Sequence record: PZ543597.1
Length of the DNA stretch: 64,000 nt
Strand: one strand, 5' to 3'
Origin: a phage
Shown here: in pieces, positions 4,841 to 58,254 of the stretch
Numbering within the stretch: position 1 is the stretch's first letter
Layout of the letters: each line of letters starts with the position of its first letter
Made by a program: the position numbers and the translations under genes
Notes under the pieces: model-generated
Told to the model about the DNA's origin: nothing
The model's database searches: none
The model's input: only the letters and a program-made list of their open reading frames with translations

Positions 4841-6645
4841 TATGCAATCCTTATCCAACGGTATACAGTAATAGACGGTTGAATATTACTAATATTAGTA
4901 GGAGGAGTATGTGAAGAGTTTGTTGTTGCGTAGTCTTCACGATATTTTGTATATATAGGACCAGTTTCGTCTGGGTCATATTGACAACCTCCAATAATAA
5001 CTGATCCGTTTTCATCTTCAATTAAAACTTTTTCATCAGTTTTAGTCGCAGGAAGATTTGCGTTCTCAAGTGTCACCGATGTTGTTCCAACTGTTCCACC
5101 GGCAGTATGTGAAGGATTTCCGCTAGAATCTAAATCATTATTGTTTAAAGCAAAGTTTGGATCCGTAACATCATCATTCCATCCTACTAAAACTTGTCCT
5201 TTACCAAATAATTTCCATGAACCAAATCCCATATAAGTCACCGGATTATTTGGATTTATAGCATTTTCATAAATTGAACCTACAGGATAAATGCTATCGA
5301 AAATAGATGATATTGAATTATACGTTCTAGTATAAGAATCAACTTTTTCAACATTTGGCCAACCGATTTTATCAAAATCTGTTAAGGCTACATCACCAGT
5401 AACTTCGGTAGATGATCCTTTACTAACATAACGGTCATCCGTTAATTCAATGATGTCATCTTTTTCTAAAAGAGTTCCTAAATCATTATTGAACCACGTT
5501 ATAACGATTATATCACCTGATTCAAATTTTCTATCAAATAAAAGACTGACAGGTTTTCCATCTTCATATTCTATAGAATAATCTGTGTTAGATTCTTTCC
5601 ATTCACCACCAAGAGATATACATCCTGCTTGCGTATCTGAGTTAGCACCTTCACACAAAAACAGAGGATATCCTGCTGTTCCAGCTTGTTGTTGTAAAAT
5701 TCCATTAAAACGAACTTCAAGAGAATTAGGATTAATAGGTTCTCCAGGAATTAATCCAAATGCAGAGAATGGAATTGATTTCATTGTTGATAAATCAGTA
5801 ACGTAAATACTTCCTTCTAAAGAAGTTTTTGACGTTAATTTTGAATCTAATACTTTTATTTGGCGTCTTGTATATGAACTTCTCCATTGTGATATACCAT
5901 CCATAAATGTTTCAATTTGAACAGTGTCACCAATATTACAAGGCTGTCTTAACCTAATATTAAATCCATCAAGAGGAATCAATTCTCCTTCATTTTCCCC
6001 AGGAGAGCCAAAGTCACTGTTTTCACTAAATACATCGCCGTAATATAATTCATTACCACGGTGTTTTACTCGGATGTTATTAACATTATAGCTAGTTCCG
6101 CGGAAAACATCTAAAAAGTCTGTTTGTCCTTGAACTTCGACTAAAAATTCTTTACGTGCTACATTACTAATATCTGAACTAATAATTTTGTCAATTTGTT
6201 TGTTTTTGACATATTCCCAACGTCCTGGAGCACAATAAACGAGCTCTAAATCACTAAATTGAATATTAATTTCAACTGACGATGACGACCCTTTAATTGT
6301 ATCCCCAGAAGCAGCTACTAAAGTAACTGGATTAATGTTCCATGTTGCAAATACATCCCTAGCTCTAATTACTTTATTATAATCATTAACAGTTCCTTTA
6401 GGAAGTTGTAAAGTTACTCTTCCAGAAGAGGTATTAATAGCGTATGATTTTCCCCACTTAGCTTTTAATGTTTGACCGGATGAAGCATTATAAGTTTTCC
6501 AGGCACCGGCTGAATATGGAACATCTCCATCGCCAAGTTCATAATAAAGTTCATCAAAGTTTTCATTTATTTTTATACCACCTTTACGCAGGTAGTCACC
6601 GGTACCATCATCAACAACATTACCGATATTAATATTTTGTTTCAT
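4840..6645 (-). CDS. 10: baseplate wedge protein gp10
   Basis: 601-aa ORF; size and synteny with T4 gp10. Confidence 0.9.
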
Positions 6646-21711: not shown

Positions 21712-21784
21712 TGGGAATTAGCCAAGTTGGTAAGGCACTGGATTTTGATTCCAGGATGCAAAGGTTCGAGTCCTTTATTCCCAG
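21712..21784 (+). tRNA. tRNA-Gln: tRNA-Gln (anticodon UUG)
   Basis: Manual cloverleaf: acceptor tgggaat/attccca, anticodon loop ttTTGat, T-loop ttcgagt. Confidence 0.85.
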
Positions 21785-21785
21785 C

Positions 21786-21872
21786 GCGAGAATGGCCAAA
21801 TTGGTAAAGGCACAGCACTTAAAATGCTGCGGAATGATTTCCTTGTGGGTTCGAGTCCCACTTCTCGCACCA
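21786..21872 (+). tRNA. tRNA-Leu: tRNA-Leu (anticodon UAA), class II, CCA encoded
   Basis: Acceptor gcgagaa/ttctcgc, anticodon loop ctTAAaa, long variable arm, 3' CCA. Confidence 0.85.
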
Positions 21873-21877
21873 AATTT

Positions 21878-21951
<74 letters not shown>

Positions 21952-21961
21952 ATTTAATTTA

Positions 21962-22035
21962 CTCCGTGTAGCTCAGTTTGGTAGAGCGTCTGCTTTGGGA
22001 GCAGAATGTCGTAGGTTCAAATCCTGCCACGGAGA
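21962..22035 (+). tRNA. tRNA-Pro: tRNA-Pro (anticodon UGG)
   Basis: Acceptor ctccgtg/cacggag, anticodon stem tctgc/gcaga, loop ttTGGga. Confidence 0.85.
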
Positions 22036-22037
22036 CT

Positions 22038-22127
22038 GGAGGCGTGGCAGAGTGGTTTAATGCACCGGTCTTGAAAATCGGCAGTCGCTCCGGCGACTCA
22101 TAGGTTCAAATCCTATCGCCTCCGCCA
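22038..22127 (+). tRNA. tRNA-Ser: tRNA-Ser (anticodon UGA), class II
   Basis: Acceptor ggaggcg/cgcctcc, anticodon loop ctTGAaa, long variable arm, 3' CCA. Confidence 0.85.
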
Positions 22128-22132
22128 GTTTT

Positions 22133-22208
22133 GCTGATTTAGCTCAGTAGGTAGAGCAACTCACTTGTAATGAGAAGGTCGGCGGTTCGATTCCGTCAAT
22201 CAGCACCA
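22133..22208 (+). tRNA. tRNA-Thr: tRNA-Thr (anticodon UGU)
   Basis: Acceptor gctgatt/aatcagc, anticodon loop ctTGTaa, 3' CCA. Confidence 0.85.
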
Positions 22209-22209
22209 A

Positions 22210-22284
22210 GGCCCTGTAGCTGGAAGGTTCAAGCAAGCGACTCATAATCGCCAGATGGTGGTTCAATTCCACCCAGGGCCACCA
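22210..22284 (+). tRNA. tRNA-Ile: tRNA with anticodon CAU (Ile by analogy with T4, where the wobble C is modified; Met not excluded)
   Basis: Acceptor ggccctg/cagggcc, anticodon loop ctCATaa, 3' CCA. Confidence 0.75.
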
Positions 22285-22293
22285 AATTAATTT

Positions 22294-22380
22294 GGGGAGT
22301 TATCCCGTAGAGGTAGCGGTGTGGACTGTAAATCCATTGTCATTGCGACTCGGGTGGTTCGACTCCACCACTCCCCACCA
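22294..22380 (+). tRNA. tRNA-Tyr: tRNA-Tyr (anticodon GUA), class II; not among the eight T4 tRNAs
   Basis: Acceptor ggggagt/actcccc, anticodon stem gtgga/tccat with loop ctGTAaa, 15-nt variable arm, T-arm ggtgg-ttcgact-ccacc, 3' CCA. Confidence 0.7.
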
Positions 22381-22384
22381 ATTT

Positions 22385-22459
22385 GGATGTGTAGCTCAAT
22401 GGCAGAGCGATCGCCTGTTAAGCGATTGGTTATAGGTTCGAATCCTATCACGTCCGCCA
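22385..22459 (+). tRNA. tRNA-Asn: tRNA-Asn (anticodon GUU); not among the eight T4 tRNAs
   Basis: Acceptor ggatgtg/cacgtcc (one G-U), anticodon stem atcgc/gcgat with loop ctGTTaa, T-loop ttcgaat, 3' CCA. Confidence 0.7.
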
Positions 22460-22573
22460 AATTTGTGACAACTGTCACATTAATATCTACTTGACGCGAT
22501 TATAGGGGTTGAACTGATCACTCTTCTCTTAATTTCGTGTGAAGACATCTTGATTGTTGGAGTAGGTATTAAT

Positions 22574-22649
22574 GTGGCCGTAGTTCAGTTGGTAGAACTC
22601 GAGATTGTGATTCTCGTAGTCATGGGTTCGACTCCCATCGGTCACCCCA
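22574..22649 (+). tRNA. tRNA-His: tRNA-His (anticodon GUG); not among the eight T4 tRNAs
   Basis: Acceptor gtggccg/cggtcac, D-stem gttc/gaac, anticodon stem cgaga/tctcg with loop ttGTGat, T-loop ttcgact, 3' CCA. Confidence 0.7.
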
Positions 22650-22653
22650 ATTA

Positions 22654-22729
22654 CGGGGCATAGCTCAGAAGGAAGAGCAAGGACCTTCTAAGTCCTAGGT
22701 CGTAGGTTCGATCCCTACTGCCTCGACCA
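22654..22729 (+). tRNA. tRNA-Arg: tRNA-Arg (anticodon UCU)
   Basis: Acceptor cggggca/tgcctcg, anticodon stem aggac/gtcct with loop ctTCTaa, T-loop ttcgatc, 3' CCA. Confidence 0.85.
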
Positions 22730-34524: not shown

Positions 34525-35106
34525 ATGGCGAGTTTAATTTTTACTTACGCAGCAATGAATGCTGGAAAATCTGCTTCTCTTTTGACTGCTGCACATAATT
34601 ATAAAGAACGCGGAATGGGTGTATTAGTTCTTAAGCCTGCTATTGATACTCGCGATTCTGTCTGTGAAGTCGTTTCTCGCATTGGAATTAAGCAGGAAGC
34701 GAATATTATTACGGATGATATGGATATTTTTGAGTTCTATAAATGGGCTGAAGCACAAAAAGATATTCATTGTGTATTTGTAGATGAAGCTCAGTTTTTA
34801 AAAACTGAACAGGTGCATCAATTAAGTCGAATTGTTGATACATATAATGTTCCTGTTATGGCTTATGGGCTAAGGACTGATTTCGCTGGAAAATTATTTG
34901 AAGGTTCTAAAGAACTTTTGGCGATTGCAGATAAACTTATTGAACTAAAGGCAGTTTGTCATTGTGGTAAAAAAGCTATTATGACAGCTCGATTAATGGA
35001 AGATGGAACACCAGTTAAAGAAGGTAATCAAATCTGTATTGGTGATGAAATTTATGTTTCTTTGTGTAGAAAACATTGGAACGAATTAACTAAAAAGCTC
35101 GGTTAG
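34525..35106 (+). CDS. tk: thymidine kinase
   Basis: 193-aa ORF with P-loop AMNAGKSASLL and zinc ribbon CHCGKK...C..HW; matches T4 Tk as recalled. Confidence 0.95.
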   Translation: MASLIFTYAAMNAGKSASLLTAAHNYKERGMGVLVLKPAIDTRDSVCEVVSRIGIKQEANIITDDMDIFEFYKWAEAQKDIHCVFVDEAQFLKTEQVHQLSRIVDTYNVPVMAYGLRTDFAGKLFEGSKELLAIADKLIELKAVCHCGKKAIMTARLMEDGTPVKEGNQICIGDEIYVSLCRKHWNELTKKLG

Positions 35107-35148
35107 TGCAAAAGTTATAAATAGGTTTATCTAACTAAAGGGGTATAT

Positions 35149-35361
35149 ATGCTACAATTAACTGAAAAGCAACTTCGCAATCTTACTGTTCTTCAATTAG
35201 ATGAAATTCGTAGGGAAGTTGGAAATATCATTTCAGCTTTGCGTCGAGAAGTATCACTCAACCAATCTCCGGCAGACTATACTAGATTGCGAAATTTTGA
35301 AAAATACCTTGATAAAGTTAAGGCCGTGCATCGGCATAAAGTAAATACAGGACAAAAATGA
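35149..35361 (+). CDS. hypothetical protein (rI.1 position)
   Basis: 70-aa ORF with RBS aaagggg. Confidence 0.5.
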
Positions 35362-35373
35362 TAGGAGGCCTTT

Positions 35374-35667
35374 ATGGCCTTAAAAGCAACGGCACTATTT
35401 GCCATGCTAGGATTAGCGTTTGCTTTATCTCCACCAATTGAAGCGAATGTCGATCCTCATTTTGATAAATTTATGGAATCTGGTATTAGACACGTTTATA
35501 TGCTTTTTGAAAATAAAAGCGTAGAATCATCTGAACAGTTCTATAGTTTTATGCGAACGACTTATAAAAATGACCCGTGCTCTTCCGATTTTGAATGTAT
35601 AGAGCGAGGCGCGGAGATGGCACAATCATACGCTAGAATTATGAACATTAAATTGGAGACTGAATGA
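35374..35667 (+). CDS. rI: lysis-inhibition regulator rI
   Basis: 97-aa ORF with signal-anchor MALKATALFAMLGLAFALSP and ...CSSDFECIERGAEMAQSYARIMN; matches T4 RI as recalled. Confidence 0.9.
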   Translation: MALKATALFAMLGLAFALSPPIEANVDPHFDKFMESGIRHVYMLFENKSVESSEQFYSFMRTTYKNDPCSSDFECIERGAEMAQSYARIMNIKLETE

Positions 35668-36050
35668 AATTCAGCGACTTTTCACAAAGTGGAAAACCTT
35701 CAAAGGCAGATGAATACTTAGGTTTATTAATGGCTGCACAAGCTTATTTTCATTCTGCGCATTTTGAAACTAAAAGTTATGCTAGACACAAAGCATACGA
35801 TTTTATTTTCTCTGAGTTGCCAGATTTGATTGATAAATTTGGTGAGCAATATTTGGGGTATTCTGGTAGAAAATACACGCCTTCTATTCCAGATGCCAGT
35901 AAACTTCCTACCGACACAATTAAAATGATTGATCGCATACTAGACCAATCTAACAGCATTTATAAAGAAATGCCTCCAGCCATTCAAAGCACGATAGATG
36001 ATATTACTGGGATGTTTTACCAGAGTAAATATCTTCTTTCCCTCGAATAA
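35664..36050 (+). CDS. hypothetical protein (rI.-1 position)
   Basis: 128-aa ORF, ATGA-coupled to rI. Confidence 0.55.
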
Positions 36051-36053
36051 CAT

Positions 36054-36077
36054 TAGTCTCCTTCGGGAGACTTTTTT
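36054..36077 (+). terminator. intrinsic terminator
   Basis: agtctccttcgggagact hairpin followed by tttttc. Confidence 0.7.
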
Positions 36078-36088
36078 CATTTTACCGG

Positions 36089-36117
36089 TTTACTTTCCAT
36101 TTGAGCTGTGATACTAT
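36089..36117 (+). promoter_or_regulatory. T4-type early promoter
   Basis: -35 TTTACT, 17-bp spacer, -10 TACTAT followed by acaactatc. Confidence 0.65.
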
Positions 36118-36145
36118 ACAACTATCGGATAAAGAGGAGAACATC

Positions 36146-36334
36146 ATGAAAATTGAAGCACTTAATCAAGAAGGAAATATCTACGTCATCATTAATGGTG
36201 ATTTTTTCGTCGACATGGATGAAGTTACTAGTGAAGAACTTGTAGAACTTCTTAAGAAACGTTATGATATGTGTGATGAAGCTGCAACTCATATGGCGTG
36301 TGCAATATTCTCTCTTTCATATGTGGTGGAATAA
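36146..36334 (+). CDS. hypothetical small acidic protein
   Basis: 62 aa from an ATG after aaagaggagaa. Confidence 0.5.
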
Positions 36335-36537
36335 TGACTAGAATTGAACAAGCAGATAAAATTAAAGAATTGGTAGCTTTAATTCGCAAAGCAGATGAGG
36401 AACTTAGTGACTTTGCTTGGTTTTCGGCAGGCATTGCAAATAAAGGTATTGAAAAATTTGAAGCTAAAGTTGATAATGCTTTAGAAGCGTTAGATATGTT
36501 TCTTGATGAAATTATCGATCATAATACGAGAGTTTAA
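36334..36537 (+). CDS. hypothetical small protein
   Basis: 67 aa, TAATG-coupled. Confidence 0.45.
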   Translation: MTRIEQADKIKELVALIRKADEELSDFAWFSAGIANKGIEKFEAKVDNALEALDMFLDEIIDHNTRV

Positions 36538-36539
36538 TT

Positions 36540-36734
36540 ATGCTAACACGTGAACAGTTTGAAAAAATTATTAAATTAGCACGTGATATTGAAATAGATT
36601 CATACCAATTAGCAGTTGAGCATTGTGAAGGATATTCATACGACGGTATAGAAGCAGCTAAAAAGGATTTGGATAAATCCAAAGCTAAGTTAGTTCAATA
36701 TCTTGAAATGATTAGGTGGAATAATGAAAACTGA
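36540..36734 (+). CDS. hypothetical small protein
   Basis: 64-aa ORF. Confidence 0.45.
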   Translation: MLTREQFEKIIKLARDIEIDSYQLAVEHCEGYSYDGIEAAKKDLDKSKAKLVQYLEMIRWNNEN

Positions 36735-36897
36735 AAAGCAGATGTTTTTAATGAAGCTAATTGAAGAATATGCTAATGCAGTTTCTGACTATGAGTATTC
36801 TGCTCGGGAAAGAGGTACAGCTTTCGCAAAGGAAGAAATGAAAATCATGGTTGATGCTCACACAAAGCTTCAGAATTTTATTGAAAACGTCATTTAA
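36724..36897 (+). CDS. hypothetical small protein
   Basis: 57-aa ORF (below the track cutoff) overlapping the upstream gene by 11 nt. Confidence 0.35.
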   Translation: MKTEKQMFLMKLIEEYANAVSDYEYSARERGTAFAKEEMKIMVDAHTKLQNFIENVI

Positions 36898-36900
36898 TGG

Positions 36901-36929
36901 TTTACAAGTTGGCAAGATTATGATATAGT
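36901..36929 (+). promoter_or_regulatory. T4-type early promoter with 13-bp embedded stem-loop
   Basis: -35 TTTACA, 17-bp spacer, -10 TATAGT; inverted repeat gttggcaagatta/taatcttgtcaac encloses the -10. Confidence 0.6.
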
Positions 36930-37088
36930 AATCTTGTCAACTGCCAAGGAGAAGAGAATGAAAGTTTTGTTTGTTGTGTATGTGATGATTCAATATAATT
37001 ATCCAATGTTTACTTATAATCTGGTGAACAACATTATTGATATTATTCAAAGGAGTATGTAATTGTGGGTGAGTCGAAGAGAATCAAT

Positions 37089-37622
37089 ATGAAACGATTA
37101 GTATTAGAAGTTAGTCCGCTTTTTGGTGAATTAGCTATAGAAAAAGTAAATAATATGTATCGTTTGACACAAGAAGACGATATGCTATATTTTACGCCTA
37201 GTGAAATCATTCATTTAACCCAAATTGAATATCCTTATACTGATAAAATAGTAAGCATCAATGATGAGCACAAAATTCATTTTTATTCTTCATGCCCAGG
37301 ATTTAATATTAAAAGTGAGTCAATGTGTTTATCAGTTATCCATTGGGATAGTTTTATAGATAAGATTAAATATTTTTATTATTCTAATGAAAGAAAACAT
37401 AGTTTAAAATGGCTCAAAAATTGCAATGCTATTATTACTAACGCTTGCAATCAGAATGATGAAACTGTTTTAAACGTATCAAAATGCTATGAAGATGGTG
37501 ATGTCTTAACTATTCGTCAAATTGATGATTTTCGATCGTATATTGTCACATTTACCAAAGACGAAGCTATTGCGCTAAAGACTTATCTCGATTCTGTCAT
37601 TCCAACTATGATTTCAAAGTGA
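37089..37622 (+). CDS. hypothetical protein, paralogue A of a tandem pair
   Basis: 177 aa from ATG 37089; C-terminus DEAIALKTYLDSVIPTMISK resembles that of the next gene. Confidence 0.5.
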   Translation: MKRLVLEVSPLFGELAIEKVNNMYRLTQEDDMLYFTPSEIIHLTQIEYPYTDKIVSINDEHKIHFYSSCPGFNIKSESMCLSVIHWDSFIDKIKYFYYSNERKHSLKWLKNCNAIITNACNQNDETVLNVSKCYEDGDVLTIRQIDDFRSYIVTFTKDEAIALKTYLDSVIPTMISK

Positions 37623-37628
37623 GGAAAT

Positions 37629-38150
37629 ATGTTTATTTCAAGTGGAAGTGGTTTAATTCGTGTTGAATTTAAAAATGACATCTTCCTTATTCAAGGAGAT
37701 GATATTATTAAAATGAGTTATGATGAAATTAAGAAAATTTGTAATGCTCTTGAAAGTCATGGAAAAGTGAACGCTGTTATTGATATTGGTGATTTATGGG
37801 TGACACTTTATGAAGTATCCGAAGGATTTAATATTGAAGATGAAAACAACATCTTAGCTATTGATAAAAGAAGCGATTTGTTTGATGTGTTAAAAGTTTA
37901 TGAACAGTCAAACGGTGGAAGAACAGCTGTATTGATTTATCAAAAACCACATTCATGTGGAACTGCTTCAATCATTTCAGATATTGAAGATGAAACTGAT
38001 ACTTATATGTGTGTTTTAAAAGCTGGTGGTGACCGTCATCCGGATTTTATTTCTATTCGTCAAAACAATGAAGAAATTTCATTATCAAAATCAGAAGCTG
38101 AAGCTATGATTAAGTATTTAACAACTGTTACACCTTCAATGAAAGGATAA
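37629..38150 (+). CDS. hypothetical protein, paralogue B of a tandem pair
   Basis: 173 aa; C-terminus SEAEAMIKYLTTVTPSMKG. Confidence 0.5.
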   Translation: MFISSGSGLIRVEFKNDIFLIQGDDIIKMSYDEIKKICNALESHGKVNAVIDIGDLWVTLYEVSEGFNIEDENNILAIDKRSDLFDVLKVYEQSNGGRTAVLIYQKPHSCGTASIISDIEDETDTYMCVLKAGGDRHPDFISIRQNNEEISLSKSEAEAMIKYLTTVTPSMKG

Positions 38151-38152
38151 TT

Positions 38153-38614
38153 ATGATTATTAATGAAAACTCTTGGCACTATAAATTATTCAAACTGTTT
38201 AACGACGAATGGAAACGACCTAAGACACTGTGTGCATACTTTTGGTCTATTGTTATCCCTACATTTTTCGTTTCTTTTTTCGGATGTACTATACTCGCAG
38301 GTCTAACTATTATCTGTGCAGAAATCATACAGAAATGGCTTATTTTTGGTAGTTTATGGACTCTTCTTCCATCGGCATTTATACTTGCACTTTTGGTTGT
38401 TTTACTTATTATCGGTTCATTTGTTATTCCTGCACAACTGCGTGAAAAATATAAAGATTATAAATGGAAAAAGGATTATGCTTTACACGTAGAAAATATT
38501 GATAGGGCGTATAAAGGTTTACCTTCTATTCAACCAAAGAAATCGGTTATCGTTGAATTTTTAAAAGCTCGTAAAGCTAAAGTATGTCCTGTTATTGAAT
38601 ATAAGGCTGAATGA
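38153..38614 (+). CDS. membrane protein (two or three transmembrane segments)
   Basis: 153 aa with hydrophobic segments IVIPTFFVSFFGCTILAGLTIICA and LLPSAFILALLVVLLIIGSFVI; ATGA-coupled to the downstream gene. Confidence 0.55.
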   Translation: MIINENSWHYKLFKLFNDEWKRPKTLCAYFWSIVIPTFFVSFFGCTILAGLTIICAEIIQKWLIFGSLWTLLPSAFILALLVVLLIIGSFVIPAQLREKYKDYKWKKDYALHVENIDRAYKGLPSIQPKKSVIVEFLKARKAKVCPVIEYKAE

Positions 38615-39624
38615 TGAAAACAGTAATGAAAAGCTATTTTGGTAGTCATCTTTATGGAACTTCTACCCCAGAATCTGATGTAGATTTTAAAGAAATCTTT
38701 GTTCCTCCTGCTCGTGATATTCTTATCGGAAATGTTAAAGAGCATATGAGTAAAAACACTAACAACACATCATCTAAAAACACTAAAGATGATATTGACC
38801 ACGAATTGTATAGTCTTAAATATTTCTTTAAATTAGCAGCAGATGGTGAAACTGTAGCGTTAGATATGCTTCACACTCCACCTGAGTTAGTGGTTAAATC
38901 TGATTTGCCTGATGTGTGGAAGTTTATTCAAGACAACCGTTCTCGTTTTTATACGACTAACATGAAATCCTATTTAGGATATGTCCGTAAGCAAGCTTCT
39001 AAATACGGCGTTAAGGGTTCTCGTTTGGCTGCATTACGTGATGTATTGAAAGTAGTTAATCAAATCCCTGAGAAATGGGTTGATTACCAAGAAGATGGTT
39101 CTATTAAGCAGCGTCGTACTAAAGTTGAAGATATTAAGCATCGTCTTCCAGAAAACGAATTCTGTGAATGGGTGTTCCATAATCATGAGAAAACAGGCCC
39201 ACAGACGTTCTACACAGTGTTGGGTCGTAAATATCAGACAACGCTTTCTCTTATTGAGCTTAAGCAGTCACTGAACAAATTAGATGCTGAATACGGTGAA
39301 CGTGCTCGTAAGGCCGAAGCCAATGAAGGTATTGACTGGAAAGCTCTGAGTCATGCTTGCCGTGGTGGACTCCAACTATTGGAAATTTACAAAACTGGTG
39401 ACTTGGTTTATCCACTCCAAGATGCTCCATTTATTCTCGACGTGAAGTTGGGTAAACATCCATTTAAAACGGTTCAAGAGTTTTTGGAAGATGTGGTCGA
39501 TCAAGTAGAAGCAGCATCTACTGAAGCTTCTAAGAACGGTATGCAGCAAAAAGTAGACATGGGTTTTTGGGATGACTTCCTTGAGAGGGTTTATCTTGAA
39601 AACCACCGAAGTTATTATAAATGA
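38611..39624 (+). CDS. nucleotidyltransferase-fold protein (Pol-beta superfamily motif)
   Basis: 337 aa; N-terminal GSHLYGTSTPESDVDF fits the G[SG]x9-13DxD nucleotidyltransferase signature, followed by a long helical domain. Confidence 0.5.
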   Translation: MMKTVMKSYFGSHLYGTSTPESDVDFKEIFVPPARDILIGNVKEHMSKNTNNTSSKNTKDDIDHELYSLKYFFKLAADGETVALDMLHTPPELVVKSDLPDVWKFIQDNRSRFYTTNMKSYLGYVRKQASKYGVKGSRLAALRDVLKVVNQIPEKWVDYQEDGSIKQRRTKVEDIKHRLPENEFCEWVFHNHEKTGPQTFYTVLGRKYQTTLSLIELKQSLNKLDAEYGERARKAEANEGIDWKALSHACRGGLQLLEIYKTGDLVYPLQDAPFILDVKLGKHPFKTVQEFLEDVVDQVEAASTEASKNGMQQKVDMGFWDDFLERVYLENHRSYYK

Positions 39625-39626
39625 TA

Positions 39627-39652
39627 GGGAGCCTTCGGGCTCCCTTTTTTAT
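39627..39652 (+). terminator. intrinsic terminator
   Basis: gggagccttcgggctccc hairpin followed by tttttt. Confidence 0.75.
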
Positions 39653-39675
39653 TTCAAAAATTTTTCACAAAATTG

Positions 39676-39704
39676 TTTACAAGCATAAAGCTTTATGGTA
39701 CTAT
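39676..39704 (+). promoter_or_regulatory. T4-type early promoter
   Basis: ttcacaaaattg upstream, -35 TTTACA, 17-bp spacer containing the palindrome ataaagctttat, -10 TACTAT. Confidence 0.65.
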
Positions 39705-39741
39705 ACAACTATCAAAACAAACACTTAAACGGAAAAACAAA

Positions 39742-39891
39742 ATGAAAATTACACCAATTGAAGTAAAAAAGTTGATTGACACAGAAGAAATTTCAGAGTG
39801 TTTTGAAAGTTTCTTAGAAGATGCAACTGAAGATAATGCAGTTTATCTCGCTCAGAAAATTATCGAAACTTATTTGGAGAAGAATCAATGA
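39742..39891 (+). CDS. hypothetical small acidic protein
   Basis: 49 aa from an ATG after aaaacaaa; the track ORF starts upstream inside the promoter. Confidence 0.4.
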   Translation: MKITPIEVKKLIDTEEISECFESFLEDATEDNAVYLAQKIIETYLEKNQ

Positions 39892-40151
39892 CAGTTTACG
39901 TAGATGTTTTAATGAATCATGGATGGAAACTTCGCGGTCATCCAACTAAAAATTGTCATATGTTCACTGATGGAGATATTGAAGAGCTTCATGAAATGGC
40001 AGAAGCAATAGGAATGAAACGTTCTTGGTTTCAAGATAAACGCATTAAACATTATGACTTACACGCTCGCCGACGCCAAAAAGCTGTAGAACTTGGAGCT
40101 GTAGAAGTATCTCGCCGTGAAGCAGTAAAAATTTGGCGAACGTTAAAATAA
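39888..40151 (+). CDS. DUF4031-like small protein
   Basis: 87 aa, MTVYVDVLMNHGWKLRGHPTKNCHMFTDGDIEELHEMAEAIGMKRSWFQDKRIKHYDL...; recalled as matching the DUF4031 family pattern. Confidence 0.45.
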   Translation: MTVYVDVLMNHGWKLRGHPTKNCHMFTDGDIEELHEMAEAIGMKRSWFQDKRIKHYDLHARRRQKAVELGAVEVSRREAVKIWRTLK

Positions 40152-40155
40152 ATTG

Positions 40156-40184
40156 TTTACAGAAGGGTAGTAGTGTGATACTAT
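40156..40184 (+). promoter_or_regulatory. T4-type early promoter with embedded inverted repeat
   Basis: -35 TTTACA, 17-bp spacer, -10 TACTAT; 27-nt tract gtgatactattaccctatcaaaacaaa is identical to 20405-20431. Confidence 0.65.
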
Positions 40185-40220
40185 TACCCTATCAAAACAA
40201 ATGTGAGATTGGAGAATAAA

Positions 40221-41189
40221 ATGAAAACTGTAACTATCAATAAGGGTATCTACTTCGGTAAAGAAATCTCTGGAACTTTTGAGCTCTTAGGTGAATGGTT
40301 CCCAGATAATGCTCCGGTAGATGCACAAGGAGATGGTAAAGTTTTTGTTGAAATTGACGGTAAGCGTCGCGGTGTTTGGGTTTACAAATCAGACATTTCA
40401 TATGATGGTGTAAAAGTTGAAGAAGTTAAAGAATCATATGAAGATATGAAAACCCGCATTAATAAAAGATTTAATGTTATGGGAATGATGACGAATGGTA
40501 TTATTAATGGAAATATTCGTTCATTAATTATCTCTGGCGCAGCAGGTATTGGTAAAACGTATTCTTTAGATAAAGCTTTAAATAAAGCAAATGATATTGG
40601 ATACATTGAATATAAAAGCATTAATGGTAAAATCTCTGGTATTGGTCTTTATGAGCAGCTTTGGAATAATCGTGAAGAGAATTCTGTCCTTTTGATTGAT
40701 GATGTGGATGTTTTCTCTGATATGGACATTCTTAATCTTCTGAAAGCTGCTCTGGACACTGGAGAGACCCGTAAAGTCTGCTGGAGCACCGCATCTTCTT
40801 ACTTAGAAGAAAAAGGCATTGAGCGTGAGTTTGAATTTAAAGGAACGATTGTTTTTATCACAAACGTTGACATTGACCGCGAATTAGACCGTGGTACTAA
40901 ACTTGCTCCACATTTACAAGCATTAGTGTCCCGCTCGGTTTATTTGGATTTGGGTGTTCACACTAATGAAGAAATTATGGTCAGGGTTGAAGATGTTATT
41001 CTTTCAACTGACATGATGCAAAAGCGCGGTCTTTCTGATGAAGAAACTTATAAAGCATTATCATGGATGAAAGTTAATGTTAATCGTTTACGCAATGTTT
41101 CACTGCGTACTGCTCTTTATCTTGCTGACTTTATTATGACCGACAAAAACGGTTGGGAAGAAATTGCTGAGGTTACTCTTCTGAAATAA
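40221..41189 (+). CDS. AAA-type P-loop ATPase
   Basis: 322 aa from ATG 40221; Walker A GAAGIGKT and Walker B LLIDDVD. Confidence 0.6.
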   Translation: MKTVTINKGIYFGKEISGTFELLGEWFPDNAPVDAQGDGKVFVEIDGKRRGVWVYKSDISYDGVKVEEVKESYEDMKTRINKRFNVMGMMTNGIINGNIRSLIISGAAGIGKTYSLDKALNKANDIGYIEYKSINGKISGIGLYEQLWNNREENSVLLIDDVDVFSDMDILNLLKAALDTGETRKVCWSTASSYLEEKGIEREFEFKGTIVFITNVDIDRELDRGTKLAPHLQALVSRSVYLDLGVHTNEEIMVRVEDVILSTDMMQKRGLSDEETYKALSWMKVNVNRLRNVSLRTALYLADFIMTDKNGWEEIAEVTLLK

Positions 41190-41278
41190 TTCATAAGAGG
41201 ACTTCTATGACAAAAAGGCAGTTCAGAAATAGATTATATGGACTGCCATTAAAAAGATAACTAGAATTAAACTGGTGA

Positions 41279-41593
41279 ATGGAGGTAATGATGTTATACT
41301 CAAAGGCTCGTGAAATTTACGAAACTAAAATTAAAGAAGCAGTATTTAAGTTCGCAACGACAATGCGATGGACAAATGACTGGGAGTATTCAAAAAATCA
41401 TAAGAAGCCCATGGTGACAAGAAAGGCTCATATGTTAGTGTTAATAGACCGTGAGCAGATTAAAGCCCGAGAAGCCCTCCAGAATCACAAAAAGGCTGCC
41501 TTTGAATGGTTTATGGATAACACTGCTCCTGAGACCAAGAAAGCGGTAAGTGCATGGTTCAGTGGAAAAAATTGTGAAAGAAGTTTCTTTTAG
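41279..41593 (+). CDS. hypothetical protein
   Basis: 104-aa ORF; start ambiguous between ATG 41279 and ATGs 9-12 nt downstream. Confidence 0.45.
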   Translation: MEVMMLYSKAREIYETKIKEAVFKFATTMRWTNDWEYSKNHKKPMVTRKAHMLVLIDREQIKAREALQNHKKAAFEWFMDNTAPETKKAVSAWFSGKNCERSFF

Positions 41594-41596
41594 TGG

Positions 41597-41625
41597 TTTA
41601 CAAGACTGTTCCTCTGTGGTATTAT
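41597..41625 (+). promoter_or_regulatory. T4-type early promoter inside an RBS-sequestering stem-loop
   Basis: -35 TTTACA, 17-bp spacer, -10 TATTAT; 9-bp arms ctgttcctc (41606-41614) and gaggaacag (41642-41650), the latter being the RBS of the gene at 41654. Confidence 0.6.
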
Positions 41626-41653
41626 TACCCTATCAACTACGGAGGAACAGAAA

Positions 41654-42181
41654 ATGAACGCTAAAGATATTTTCAACTTAGTAAATTATAACGATGGTAA
41701 ATTTAAATCTGAAGCACAAAGCAAGTTCTTTAATGACATCTCAATCGGAGGTGAAATCACGGTTGATGGAGGACAAATTTACAAATCCCGTTGGAATTGG
41801 ATCGTTATTATCGATGAGATTGGTATTGTAGAAATTTACAAGAATACGAATAAAAATCGTACATTACACTGGTCTCGTGATACTAATGAACAGTACAAAA
41901 AGGATAAAGCATCTAAATTATCTCGTGTAACTCAAGAAGATATTGAGTTCATCAAGAAAGATATTTTGATGTATGATAACTTAATTGCTGAAGAGCAAGC
42001 TGTTATTGATAAATTTGATGAGATTAAAGCTTCTCGTGAAATTCCTGATTTTATGAAAGAATCAGTAAATGAACGATACACTCTCATTTCAGAGCGTATT
42101 GAAACTTACAAAAAGCAAAGAGCTGAACGCCAAAATACTCTTCGGAAGTTTGAAGAACGGTTAAAGACGGTACTCGCATAA
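41654..42181 (+). CDS. hypothetical protein
   Basis: 175-aa ORF with RBS ggaggaacag; C-terminal coiled-coil character. Confidence 0.55.
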   Translation: MNAKDIFNLVNYNDGKFKSEAQSKFFNDISIGGEITVDGGQIYKSRWNWIVIIDEIGIVEIYKNTNKNRTLHWSRDTNEQYKKDKASKLSRVTQEDIEFIKKDILMYDNLIAEEQAVIDKFDEIKASREIPDFMKESVNERYTLISERIETYKKQRAERQNTLRKFEERLKTVLA

Positions 42182-57234: not shown

Positions 57235-58254
57235 ATGAAAATTTTAAATTTAGGTGATTGGCATTTAGGCGTTAAAGCTGATGATGAGTGGATTCGCGGT
57301 ATTCAAATTGATGGAATTAAGCAAGCGATAGAATATTCTAAGAAAAATGGAATTACTGTATGGATTCAATATGGTGATATTTTTGATGTGCGAAAAGCAA
57401 TCACGCATAAAACTATGGAGTTTGCCCGTGAAATAGTTCAAATGCTTGATGGTGCTGGAATCACATTACATACTATTGTAGGAAATCACGATCTCCACTA
57501 TAAAAATGTAATGCATCCAAATGCCTCTACTGAGCTTTTGGCTAAATATCCTAATGTTAAAGTATATGATAAGCCTACTACAGTAGATTTTGACGGATGT
57601 TTAATTGATTTAATTCCTTGGATGTGTGAAGAAAATACTGGTGAAATTCTTGAGCATATCAAAACTTCATCTGCTTCTTTTTGTGTTGGTCACTGGGAAC
57701 TGAATGGATTTTATTTTTATAAAGGAATGAAATCTCATGGTCTTGAACCTGATTTCCTTAAGACTTATAAAGAGGTGTGGTCTGGTCACTTCCATACTAT
57801 CTCTGAGGCTGCTAACGTCAGATATATTGGGACACCATGGACACTAACTGCCGGTGACGAGAATGACCCTCGTGGGTTCTGGATGTTTGATACAGAAACA
57901 GAACGAATGGAATTTATTCCAAACAACACTACCTGGCATCGTAGAATTCATTATCCATTTAAAGGAAAAATTGACTATAAAGATTTTACAAATCTATCAG
58001 TACGTGTTATAGTAACTGAAGTAGACAAAAATCTAACGAAGTTCGAATCTGAACTAGAAAAAGTTGTGCATTCATTACGAGTTGTGTCAAAAATTGATAA
58101 CTCTGTCGAGTCAGATGACAGTGAAGAAGTTGAAGTTCAATCTCTTCAGACGTTGATGGAAGAATACATTAATGCAATTCCAGACATCACTGATTCTGAC
58201 CGTGAAGCACTTATTCAATATGCAAATCAGTTATATGTAGAGGCAACACAATGA
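57235..58254 (+). CDS. 47: recombination endonuclease subunit gp47 (Mre11-like)
   Basis: 339-aa ORF with phosphoesterase motifs (LGDWHLG, GNHD); same length as T4 gp47. Confidence 0.95.
   Translation: MKILNLGDWHLGVKADDEWIRGIQIDGIKQAIEYSKKNGITVWIQYGDIFDVRKAITHKTMEFAREIVQMLDGAGITLHTIVGNHDLHYKNVMHPNASTELLAKYPNVKVYDKPTTVDFDGCLIDLIPWMCEENTGEILEHIKTSSASFCVGHWELNGFYFYKGMKSHGLEPDFLKTYKEVWSGHFHTISEAANVRYIGTPWTLTAGDENDPRGFWMFDTETERMEFIPNNTTWHRRIHYPFKGKIDYKDFTNLSVRVIVTEVDKNLTKFESELEKVVHSLRVVSKIDNSVESDDSEEVEVQSLQTLMEEYINAIPDITDSDREALIQYANQLYVEATQ

Follow-up and report, generated by a model that had tools for sequence, protein, structure and literature searches.

A T4-type accessory operon encoding NrdC.11, a predicted long-form RlaP-family nucleotidyltransferase

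In a 64,000-nucleotide stretch of phage DNA (sequence record PZ543597.1; hereafter the window, meaning the whole stretch), we analysed a short operon whose last gene encodes a 337-amino-acid (aa) Pol-beta superfamily nucleotidyltransferase (NTase), and found this protein to be the orthologue of T4 NrdC.11 and, judged from its sequence, a long-form member of the RlaP family. The window is Tequatrovirus DNA, and the operon, with the order mobD.2, mobD.1, (mobD.1 paralogue), (membrane protein), nrdC.11, is an early transcription unit of that genus. The region, already annotated, is one of the known accessory operons of T4-type phages and not a new membrane-coupled signalling system. An earlier interpretation made from the letters alone (the sequence-only reading) had proposed a membrane-coupled nucleotidyltransferase that lacked a T4 counterpart and might have a signal-making, nucleotide-modifying or anti-defence activity; it is partly supported, being right on the fold and wrong on novelty and on membrane coupling. 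The function that we favour, at a probability of roughly 0.6 and by analogy with characterised relatives, is that the NTase of this early, dispensable operon would restore nucleotides removed by host tRNA nucleases, acting together with the polynucleotide kinase/phosphatase (Pnk) and the RNA ligase of the phage.

T4 orthology, family and fold of NrdC.11

The window protein is identical to T4 NrdC.11 (NP_049709) at 330 of 336 positions (98%), and the product of the first of two paralogous genes upstream of it is identical to T4 MobD.1 (Y05I) at 151 of 176 (86%), so the supposed lack of T4 counterparts does not hold. The nearest public genome is that of Yersinia phage vB_YepM_ZN18 (ZN18), whose NTase protein is 100% identical. 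A megablast search with positions 36900–39700 returned 661 phage records, 429 of which had at least 80% query cover, nearly all of them Tequatrovirus (Escherichia, Shigella, Yersinia). The NTase open reading frame (ORF) at 38611–39624 begins MMKTVMKSYFGSHLYGTSTPESDVDF; RefSeq and T4 use the second ATG, which gives a protein of 336 aa.

The Pfam family RlaP (PF10127) matched the NTase at 44.3 bits against a cutoff of 23 (E = 2.4e-11), over profile positions 23–142 of 249 only, and is precomputed for all 120 listed close homologues; the matching PHROG (388) is annotated "nucleotidyltransferase". An exhaustive HMMER search with NrdC.11 collected 3429 representative proteins at E ≤ 0.001 and 826 at 1e-30. 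When 144 diverse homologues were aligned, G11 and S12 proved invariant and S22, D23, D25, D61, D63 and D85 were conserved in at least 90%. Profile–profile comparison (hhalign) of NrdC.11 with canonical RlaP gave a probability of 94% (E = 1.5e-7) over the first ~130 residues, pairing G11-S12, S22-D23-x-D25, D63 and D85 with the canonical invariant residues S36-G37, S48-D49-x-D51, D82 and E104. The Pol-beta catalytic set (hG[GS], DxD and a third conserved Asp) is present in NrdC.11, the third acidic residue, which the sequence-only reading had left to be checked, being D63.

An AlphaFold2 (AF2) model built on the 144-sequence alignment has a predicted local distance difference test score (pLDDT) of 95 and a predicted template-modelling score (pTM) of 0.86, and comprises an alpha/beta NTase domain (residues 1–113), helices at 119–150 and 214–336, and a beta-rich insert at about 150–210. 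Foldseek searches with this model retrieved KNTase, Hailong HalB, 3c18, ANT(4'), LinB, Tam41 and MNT at probabilities of up to 1.0, with template-modelling (TM) scores of only 0.3–0.4 and no closer solved structure available. Together, the Pfam RlaP match, the AF2 model and the NTase-fold structural matches confirm that NrdC.11 is a Pol-beta superfamily NTase, as had been proposed from its N-terminal signature. We rejected a CD-NTase or OAS identity: Pfam gave no match to SMODS, OAS or any further family of signalling NTases, and neither CD-NTases nor OAS stood among the top structural matches, which speaks against the suggested signal-making activity. Sequence searches of the PDB, in a copy lacking the PfRlaP crystal structure, with NrdC.11, its 144-sequence profile, the canonical RlaP profile, the membrane protein and a y05I profile gave no informative match, NCBIfam gave none above its cutoffs, and PADLOC (2023 library, in which the inclusion of Hailong is unconfirmed) gave none for any of six proteins.

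Members of the RlaP family, whose name is said to come from Burroughs and Aravind in 2016, have been characterised from Pseudomonas (PfRlaP and PaRlaP). In the PfRlaP crystal structure, an N-terminal NTase domain is joined to a C-terminal helical domain whose final helix packs back against the NTase domain. NrdC.11 shares with these enzymes the GS / DxD / D set and, in its AF2 model, may share the combination of an NTase with a helical domain, but differs from canonical RlaP in being ~70 residues longer, in its beta-rich insert and in falling into a separate sequence similarity network (SSN) cluster. NrdC.11 orthologues were assigned a COG3541 NTase domain as early as 2006 (PMC1524935), and a 2025 preprint on Pseudomonas RlaP places T4 NrdC.11 in SSN cluster 5, among the RlaPs, with its function unknown (PMC12776372).

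RNA-repair neighbours and a proposed role in tRNA rescue

We compared 80 bacterial and archaeal loci with a full-length NrdC.11-type gene (33–41% identity, two at 52–54%), many of them on megabase chromosomal contigs; one gave no NTase ORF in the neighbour analysis, which sets the denominator there at 79. The commonest neighbour was a canonical 264-aa RlaP (253 bits, full-length Pfam match): 18 of 79 loci have its gene directly downstream in the same orientation, and 23 of 80 have it within 5 kb. A gene for Pnkp, Hen1 or RtcB was found in 13 of the 80 loci and one for an HD phosphohydrolase adjacent to the NTase gene in 6, with Hen1-Pnkp-NTase-RlaP (L139) and NTase-RlaP-Hen1-Pnkp (L154) as example operons. 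Distant viral contigs carry an RNA ligase (L086), RtcB (L075, L083) or an HD phosphohydrolase (L077, L078, L081) near or beside the gene. These RNA-repair neighbours tie the NrdC.11 clade itself, beyond the wider family, to RNA repair. Canonical RlaP is likewise tied to RtcB and Pnkp/Hen1 operons, and the bacterial NrdC.11-type gene occurs beside canonical RlaP, not in its place.

The arrangement with the long NTase directly upstream of the 264-aa RlaP was seen at L092, L103, L109, L110, L137–L139, L152, L154, L155 and other loci, often in Hen1-Pnkp/RtcB operons, and we found no mention of such a tandem of two RlaP-related NTases in the literature examined. Separately, in distant T4-like contigs (L044–L064; e.g., L064:2475–3587 and L060:8423–9937), a Nudix/cytidylyltransferase-like fusion (10 loci) and NAMPT/NAPRTase (8 loci), which make up a phage NAD+ salvage pair, lie within ~4 kb of the NrdC.11 homologue, with SPFH/Band_7 proteins and a C5 DNA methylase also nearby; these surroundings look like an accessory, counter-defence-rich region.

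RNA repair as counter-defence was first exemplified by the T4 Pnk-Rnl1 pathway, which wobble-excising nucleases such as RloC have been proposed to defeat. This pathway, which counters the PrrC anticodon nuclease, is an early phage accessory function acting on cleaved host tRNA, as we propose for NrdC.11, and the 3'-OH on which an RlaP-type enzyme depends is made by its Pnk; the classical pathway, however, heals and seals without adding nucleotides. Pseudomonas RlaP adds one or two nucleoside monophosphates (NMPs) onto an RNA 3'-OH, prefers a mimic of cleaved tRNA, needs Mn2+ and does not accept DNA or protein as substrates, and it has been proposed to rescue tRNAs cut by nucleases, RloC among them, that remove a nucleotide as well (PMC12776372). 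Iyer et al. made the same tRNA-rescue prediction for jumbo-phage RlaPs, whose distribution mirrors that of RNA ligases (PMC7824862).

By analogy with the Pseudomonas enzymes, G11-S12 together with D23, D25 and D63 of NrdC.11 would bind a nucleoside triphosphate and two metal ions, and the protein would add one or two NMPs onto the 3'-OH of a broken RNA, probably the 5' half of a tRNA that a nucleotide-removing host anticodon nuclease (RloC-type) has cut. The phage polynucleotide kinase/phosphatase would first make the 3'-OH, NrdC.11 would put back the missing nucleotide or nucleotides, and RNA ligase 1, encoded like the kinase/phosphatase elsewhere in the genome, would then seal the break. The ZN18 genome encodes both Pnk and RNA ligase away from the operon, so healing and sealing partners are available. 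An anti-defence role of NrdC.11, one of the candidates of the sequence-only reading, is plausible. The tRNA-rescue idea has already been published for the RlaP family, and the window therefore adds little that is new to it.

Several points weigh against this role. Both the Pfam and the hhalign alignments reach the N-terminal ~130 residues only, leaving the C-terminal 200 residues, with the beta-rich insert, outside the alignment to canonical RlaP. In bacteria the two forms are often encoded side by side, which suggests that they are not redundant and that the long form may act differently. In T4-type phages, nrdC.11 does not lie beside pseT or rnlA but ~80 kb from them. Addition of nucleotides to an RNA 3'-OH has so far been demonstrated for the Pseudomonas RlaPs alone (PMC12776372), and in the literature searched we found no nrdC.11 mutant phenotype on a nuclease-carrying host.

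Some of these observations also feed an alternative that we regard as unlikely, in which NrdC.11 acts on RNA 3' ends for another purpose, such as rebuilding eroded tRNA 3'-CCA ends or tailing transcripts of the host or the phage, with a specificity unlike that of canonical RlaP. The bacterial loci that hold the long form beside canonical RlaP imply different jobs for the two, the C-terminal part of the long form is the unaligned one, and RlaP in vitro labels full-length tRNA and rRNA-sized species as well (PMC12776372). The same bacterial operons, however, hold Pnkp/Hen1 or RtcB, which points to the repair of breaks rather than to 3'-end maturation, and no match to a CCA-adding family was found in Pfam. 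Restoration of excised tRNA nucleotides is the role that we continue to prefer.

The mobD swap and the genes that share the transcript

Aligned with T4 by blastn (93.5–96.4% identity), window positions 35000–37647 correspond to T4 59869–57258, 38610–39715 to 56449–55344 and 40209–42000 to 55332–53539; the window runs antisense to the standard T4 map and is collinear with it except for a swap at mobD. Where the window has the second MobD.1 paralogue (paralogue 2) and a membrane-protein gene (37648–38609), T4 has mobD, an HNH homing endonuclease gene, and a review of T4 mobile elements describes mobD as inserted between nrdC.11 and mobD.1 (PMC2988022). Just upstream of mobD, T4 has kept the ribosome-binding site and the six initial codons (MFISSG) of paralogue 2 (T4 57258–57283, L002; window 37623–37647), a relic indicating that the two-gene form is ancestral and that mobD displaced paralogue 2 and the membrane gene. 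In the related contig L013, the membrane gene, mobD and nrdC.11 follow one another. The T4 mobD.2-mobD.1-mobD-nrdC.11 region is like that of this phage in its flanking genes, promoter sequence and orientation.

The 153-aa protein is a membrane protein, perhaps of 2 to 4 passes: it has a strongly hydrophobic core at residues ~25–98 (Kyte-Doolittle peaks of 2.2 and 3.0) between basic flanks, and it matches PHROG 944, "membrane protein", at 7e-49. Of the earlier description as a multi-pass membrane protein, the membrane part stands. We found no match to this protein among PDB sequences or in PADLOC; its homologues occur in 856 phage records across Tevenvirinae and are absent from T4.

NrdC.11 is independent of the membrane gene, and the proposed membrane coupling is not supported. 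T4 keeps NrdC.11 without the membrane gene, and more phage records have an NrdC.11 homologue (1519) than have the membrane protein (856) or paralogue 2 (455). None of the bacterial relatives has a membrane-protein partner, RNA-repair genes being found there instead. We compared 39 viral loci whose NrdC.11 is at least 58% identical: 37 have the membrane gene upstream of nrdC.11, 12 of them directly adjacent and 25 with other genes (0.4–1.7 kb) between; T4, L009 and L034 lack it. The membrane gene is more closely linked to y05I: in 23 of 25 loci its start is no more than 20 nt from the end of a y05I gene or of a 74–87-aa gene for the y05I C-domain only. The C-domain-only genes lie directly upstream of the membrane gene, often overlapping it, in many Tevenvirinae genera (L018, L021–L029, L035, L037 and L042; for example, L021:4754–4990 followed by the membrane gene at 4980–5456), and their products share the invariant motif TKxEAxALxxYLxSVIPTM.

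The window's own y05I genes form the pair of ~175-aa paralogues with matching C-termini that had been read from the sequence. The MobD.1 orthologue and paralogue 2 are 27% identical over their full length (E = 1e-8), both match Pfam T4_y05I_N and T4_y05I_C, and both carry the C-terminal motif (S/T)KxEAxAhxxYLxxVxP(T/S)M; a repeat search found residual DNA similarity between them at a spacing of 525–543 nt, which fits a tandem duplication. The records with paralogue 2 are nearly all Tequatrovirus, T4 having the six-codon relic only, and the y05I family as a whole is small (62 clusters) and found in T4-type phages only. A metagenomic chimera (P0281, 6 contigs) joins the N-terminal two-thirds of MobD.1 to the C-terminal third of paralogue 2, as if the tandem paralogues had recombined with loss of the intervening sequence.

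The AF2 model of MobD.1 has a pLDDT of 77.6 (85–93 in the N-domain, 50–78 in the C-domain) and shows a bbbba-bbbba N-domain followed by a C-domain of five strands and a long helix. The N-domain has the PUR/Whirly topology, bbbba-linker-bbbba, as a single domain, and on this model the y05I paralogues are predicted to be PUR/Whirly-type binders of single-stranded nucleic acid; the likeness to Pur-alpha, Whirly and MRP1/2 (PC4-like fold) comes from predicted structure, with no sequence similarity (5–11% identity). A third PUR-like repeat, dimerising in the manner of Pur-alpha, may make up the C-domain, although the hhalign match between repeat 1 and the C-domain is weak (probability 56%) and this is the low-pLDDT part of the model. 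In that case the matching C-termini would serve dimerisation, and one paralogue could pair with the other.

We consider it quite improbable that NrdC.11 works in one module with the y05I proteins and the membrane protein, the NTase being recruited or regulated by PUR-like RNA binders and a membrane anchor. The genes share a single transcript with overlapping stop and start codons, the predicted y05I fold would bind single-stranded nucleic acid, and the membrane gene is upstream in the 37 of 39 Tevenvirinae loci described above; T4-type synteny is conserved genome-wide, however, which makes its position weak evidence here, and in 25 of those 37 loci other genes intervene. T4 has exchanged paralogue 2 and the membrane gene for mobD, yet its NrdC.11 is 98% identical, and neither the record counts nor the bacterial relatives, which have no such partners, fit a fixed module. 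The y05I paralogues and the membrane protein are probably a separate, lineage-specific accessory pair that simply shares the transcript with the putative tRNA-rescue enzyme.

It is very unlikely that NrdC.11 nucleotidylates a protein or a small molecule, by MntA-like AMPylation of a HEPN RNase toxin or as a KNTase/ANT-like enzyme. Its structural matches include KNTase, ANT(4'), LinB, AAD(9) and MNT-HEPN complexes, and its C-terminal helices resemble HEPN-like bundles, but these likenesses support an MntA- or KNTase-like transferase at the level of general fold only, and the NCBIfam match to MntA (antitoxin of type VII toxin–antitoxin systems; NF047752) is very weak, at 13.2 bits against a cutoff of 60. 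A Hailong-like or anti-Hailong system, in which oligonucleotides made by the NTase (e.g., oligo-dA) would gate the phage membrane protein or host HalA, the phage thereby giving an "all is well" signal, is hardly credible: HalB (217 aa, tyrosine-primed, making oligo-dA) has no sequence relationship to NrdC.11 and is not matched in the PDB by the NrdC.11 or canonical RlaP profiles, its structural score is barely above those of other generic NTases, the 153-aa membrane protein matches no PDB chain, PADLOC, with Hailong unconfirmed in its 2023 library, is blank for both proteins, and the pairing is not obligate as it is for HalB and HalA, the membrane gene being dispensable in T4 and NrdC.11 relatives associating with RNA-repair genes.

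Operon layout, adjoining genes and implications

The operon elements, all on the + strand, lie where the sequence-only reading had put them, from the promoter-like site through the paralogues, the membrane gene and the NTase gene to the terminator (Table 1); mobD.2, between the promoter and the first paralogue, had been overlooked. This small gene is annotated in T4 and in phage YUEEL01 and is 100% conserved in related contigs. The genes are tightly packed, with the NTase start overlapping the membrane-gene stop (GAATGATG).

Table 1. Features of the nrdC.11 operon in the window
Feature	Coordinates	Strand	Basis or remark
Promoter-like site, early sigma-70 type, gTTTACA-17-TG-TATAGT	36901–36929	+	Upstream of mobD.2
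mobD.2 orthologue, 34 aa, first gene of the unit	36958–37062	+	ORF list and translation
MobD.1 (T4 Y05I) orthologue, 177 aa from ATG	37089–37622	+	Predicted PUR/Whirly-like (PC4-like) fold
Diverged tandem MobD.1 paralogue, 173 aa	37629–38150	+	27% identity to MobD.1, same two Pfam domains
Membrane protein, 153 aa (phrog_944), basic C-terminal tail	38153–38614	+	Hydropathy, PHROG
NrdC.11 orthologue, predicted long-form RlaP-family (PF10127) Pol-beta nucleotidyltransferase, 337 aa	38611–39624	+	G11-S12, D23-x-D25, D63
Intrinsic terminator-like hairpin, AGGGAGCC-TTCG-GGCTCCCT and T run	39626–39652	+	Terminator scan and direct reading

In a consensus scan, the promoter-like site matches at 10 of 12 positions and has an extended TG, and a near-identical copy stands at the homologous place in T4. 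As a class, promoter-like sites number 28 against 22.8 ± 4.7 in shuffles, with no enrichment in this AT-rich DNA, which leaves consensus and T4 conservation as the support for this site; from these we infer that it works as a promoter. No promoter features were found for the homologous region in GenBank T4 records. The top sigma-70 consensus match of the region is at 37164–37191 (TTGACA-16-TATATT with TG, 11 of 12 positions), inside the mobD.1 coding sequence, where it may have arisen by chance or act as an internal promoter. At the other end of the operon, the terminator scan placed a stem-loop at 39626–39645, with an 8-bp stem (6 GC) and a TTCG loop, followed by a T run. A viable genome-reduced T4 had lost the nrdC.11–mobD.3 segment (PMC9825161), and we therefore count the operon as a dispensable accessory.

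Downstream, this phage differs from T4 in having an extra small ORF and a DUF4031 gene between nrdC.11 and nrdC.10. They lie in a 493-bp insertion at 39716–40208, which holds a 49-aa ORF (39742–39891) and the DUF4031 gene (39888–40151, Pfam 8e-22), and this two-gene cassette occurs at varied sites in other Tevenvirinae. Promoter-proximal sequence is duplicated at the edges of the insertion (39696–39721 and 40176–40201), which gives each side a putative early-like promoter of its own (39676–39704 and 40156–40184); apart from this duplication and the similarity between the paralogues, the repeat search turned up nothing. The NrdC.10 orthologue that follows (40203–41189) is a P-loop ATPase (GAAGIGKT) with weak Pfam matches to AAA_14 (6e-05) and nSTAND3 (5e-04), all below cutoffs. 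An Rfam scan found the tRNA cluster only, with nothing between 36 and 41 kb. The cluster comprises 11 tRNA genes at 21712–22729 (Gln, Leu, Gly, Pro, Ser, Thr, Met(cat), Tyr, Asn, His and Arg); T4 has 8, and we take the Tyr, Asn and His tRNAs to be extras relative to T4.

The labels "thioredoxin" and "MobD molybdopterin-guanine dinucleotide biosynthesis", widespread among the GenBank and RefSeq orthologues of these genes, we rejected; no supporting domain was found, and the labels were apparently copied from the gene names nrdC.x and mobD.x. One record calls NrdC.11 a "putative HNH homing endonuclease".

What the window adds is a documented example of the common Tequatrovirus form of the locus, the demonstration that mobD of T4 displaced two genes, and the exposure of these labelling errors in GenBank. 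A more specific possibility, which we put forward tentatively and hold to be rather unlikely, is that the long NrdC.11 is distinct in function from canonical RlaP and that, with the y05I proteins in T4-type phages, it is dedicated to rebuilding nucleotides that "smart" anticodon nucleases excise from host tRNAs, in which case the classic T4 pathway of tRNA repair would gain a third step. If NrdC.11 does restore the excised nucleotide, T4-type phages would already carry an answer to RloC-type nucleases.

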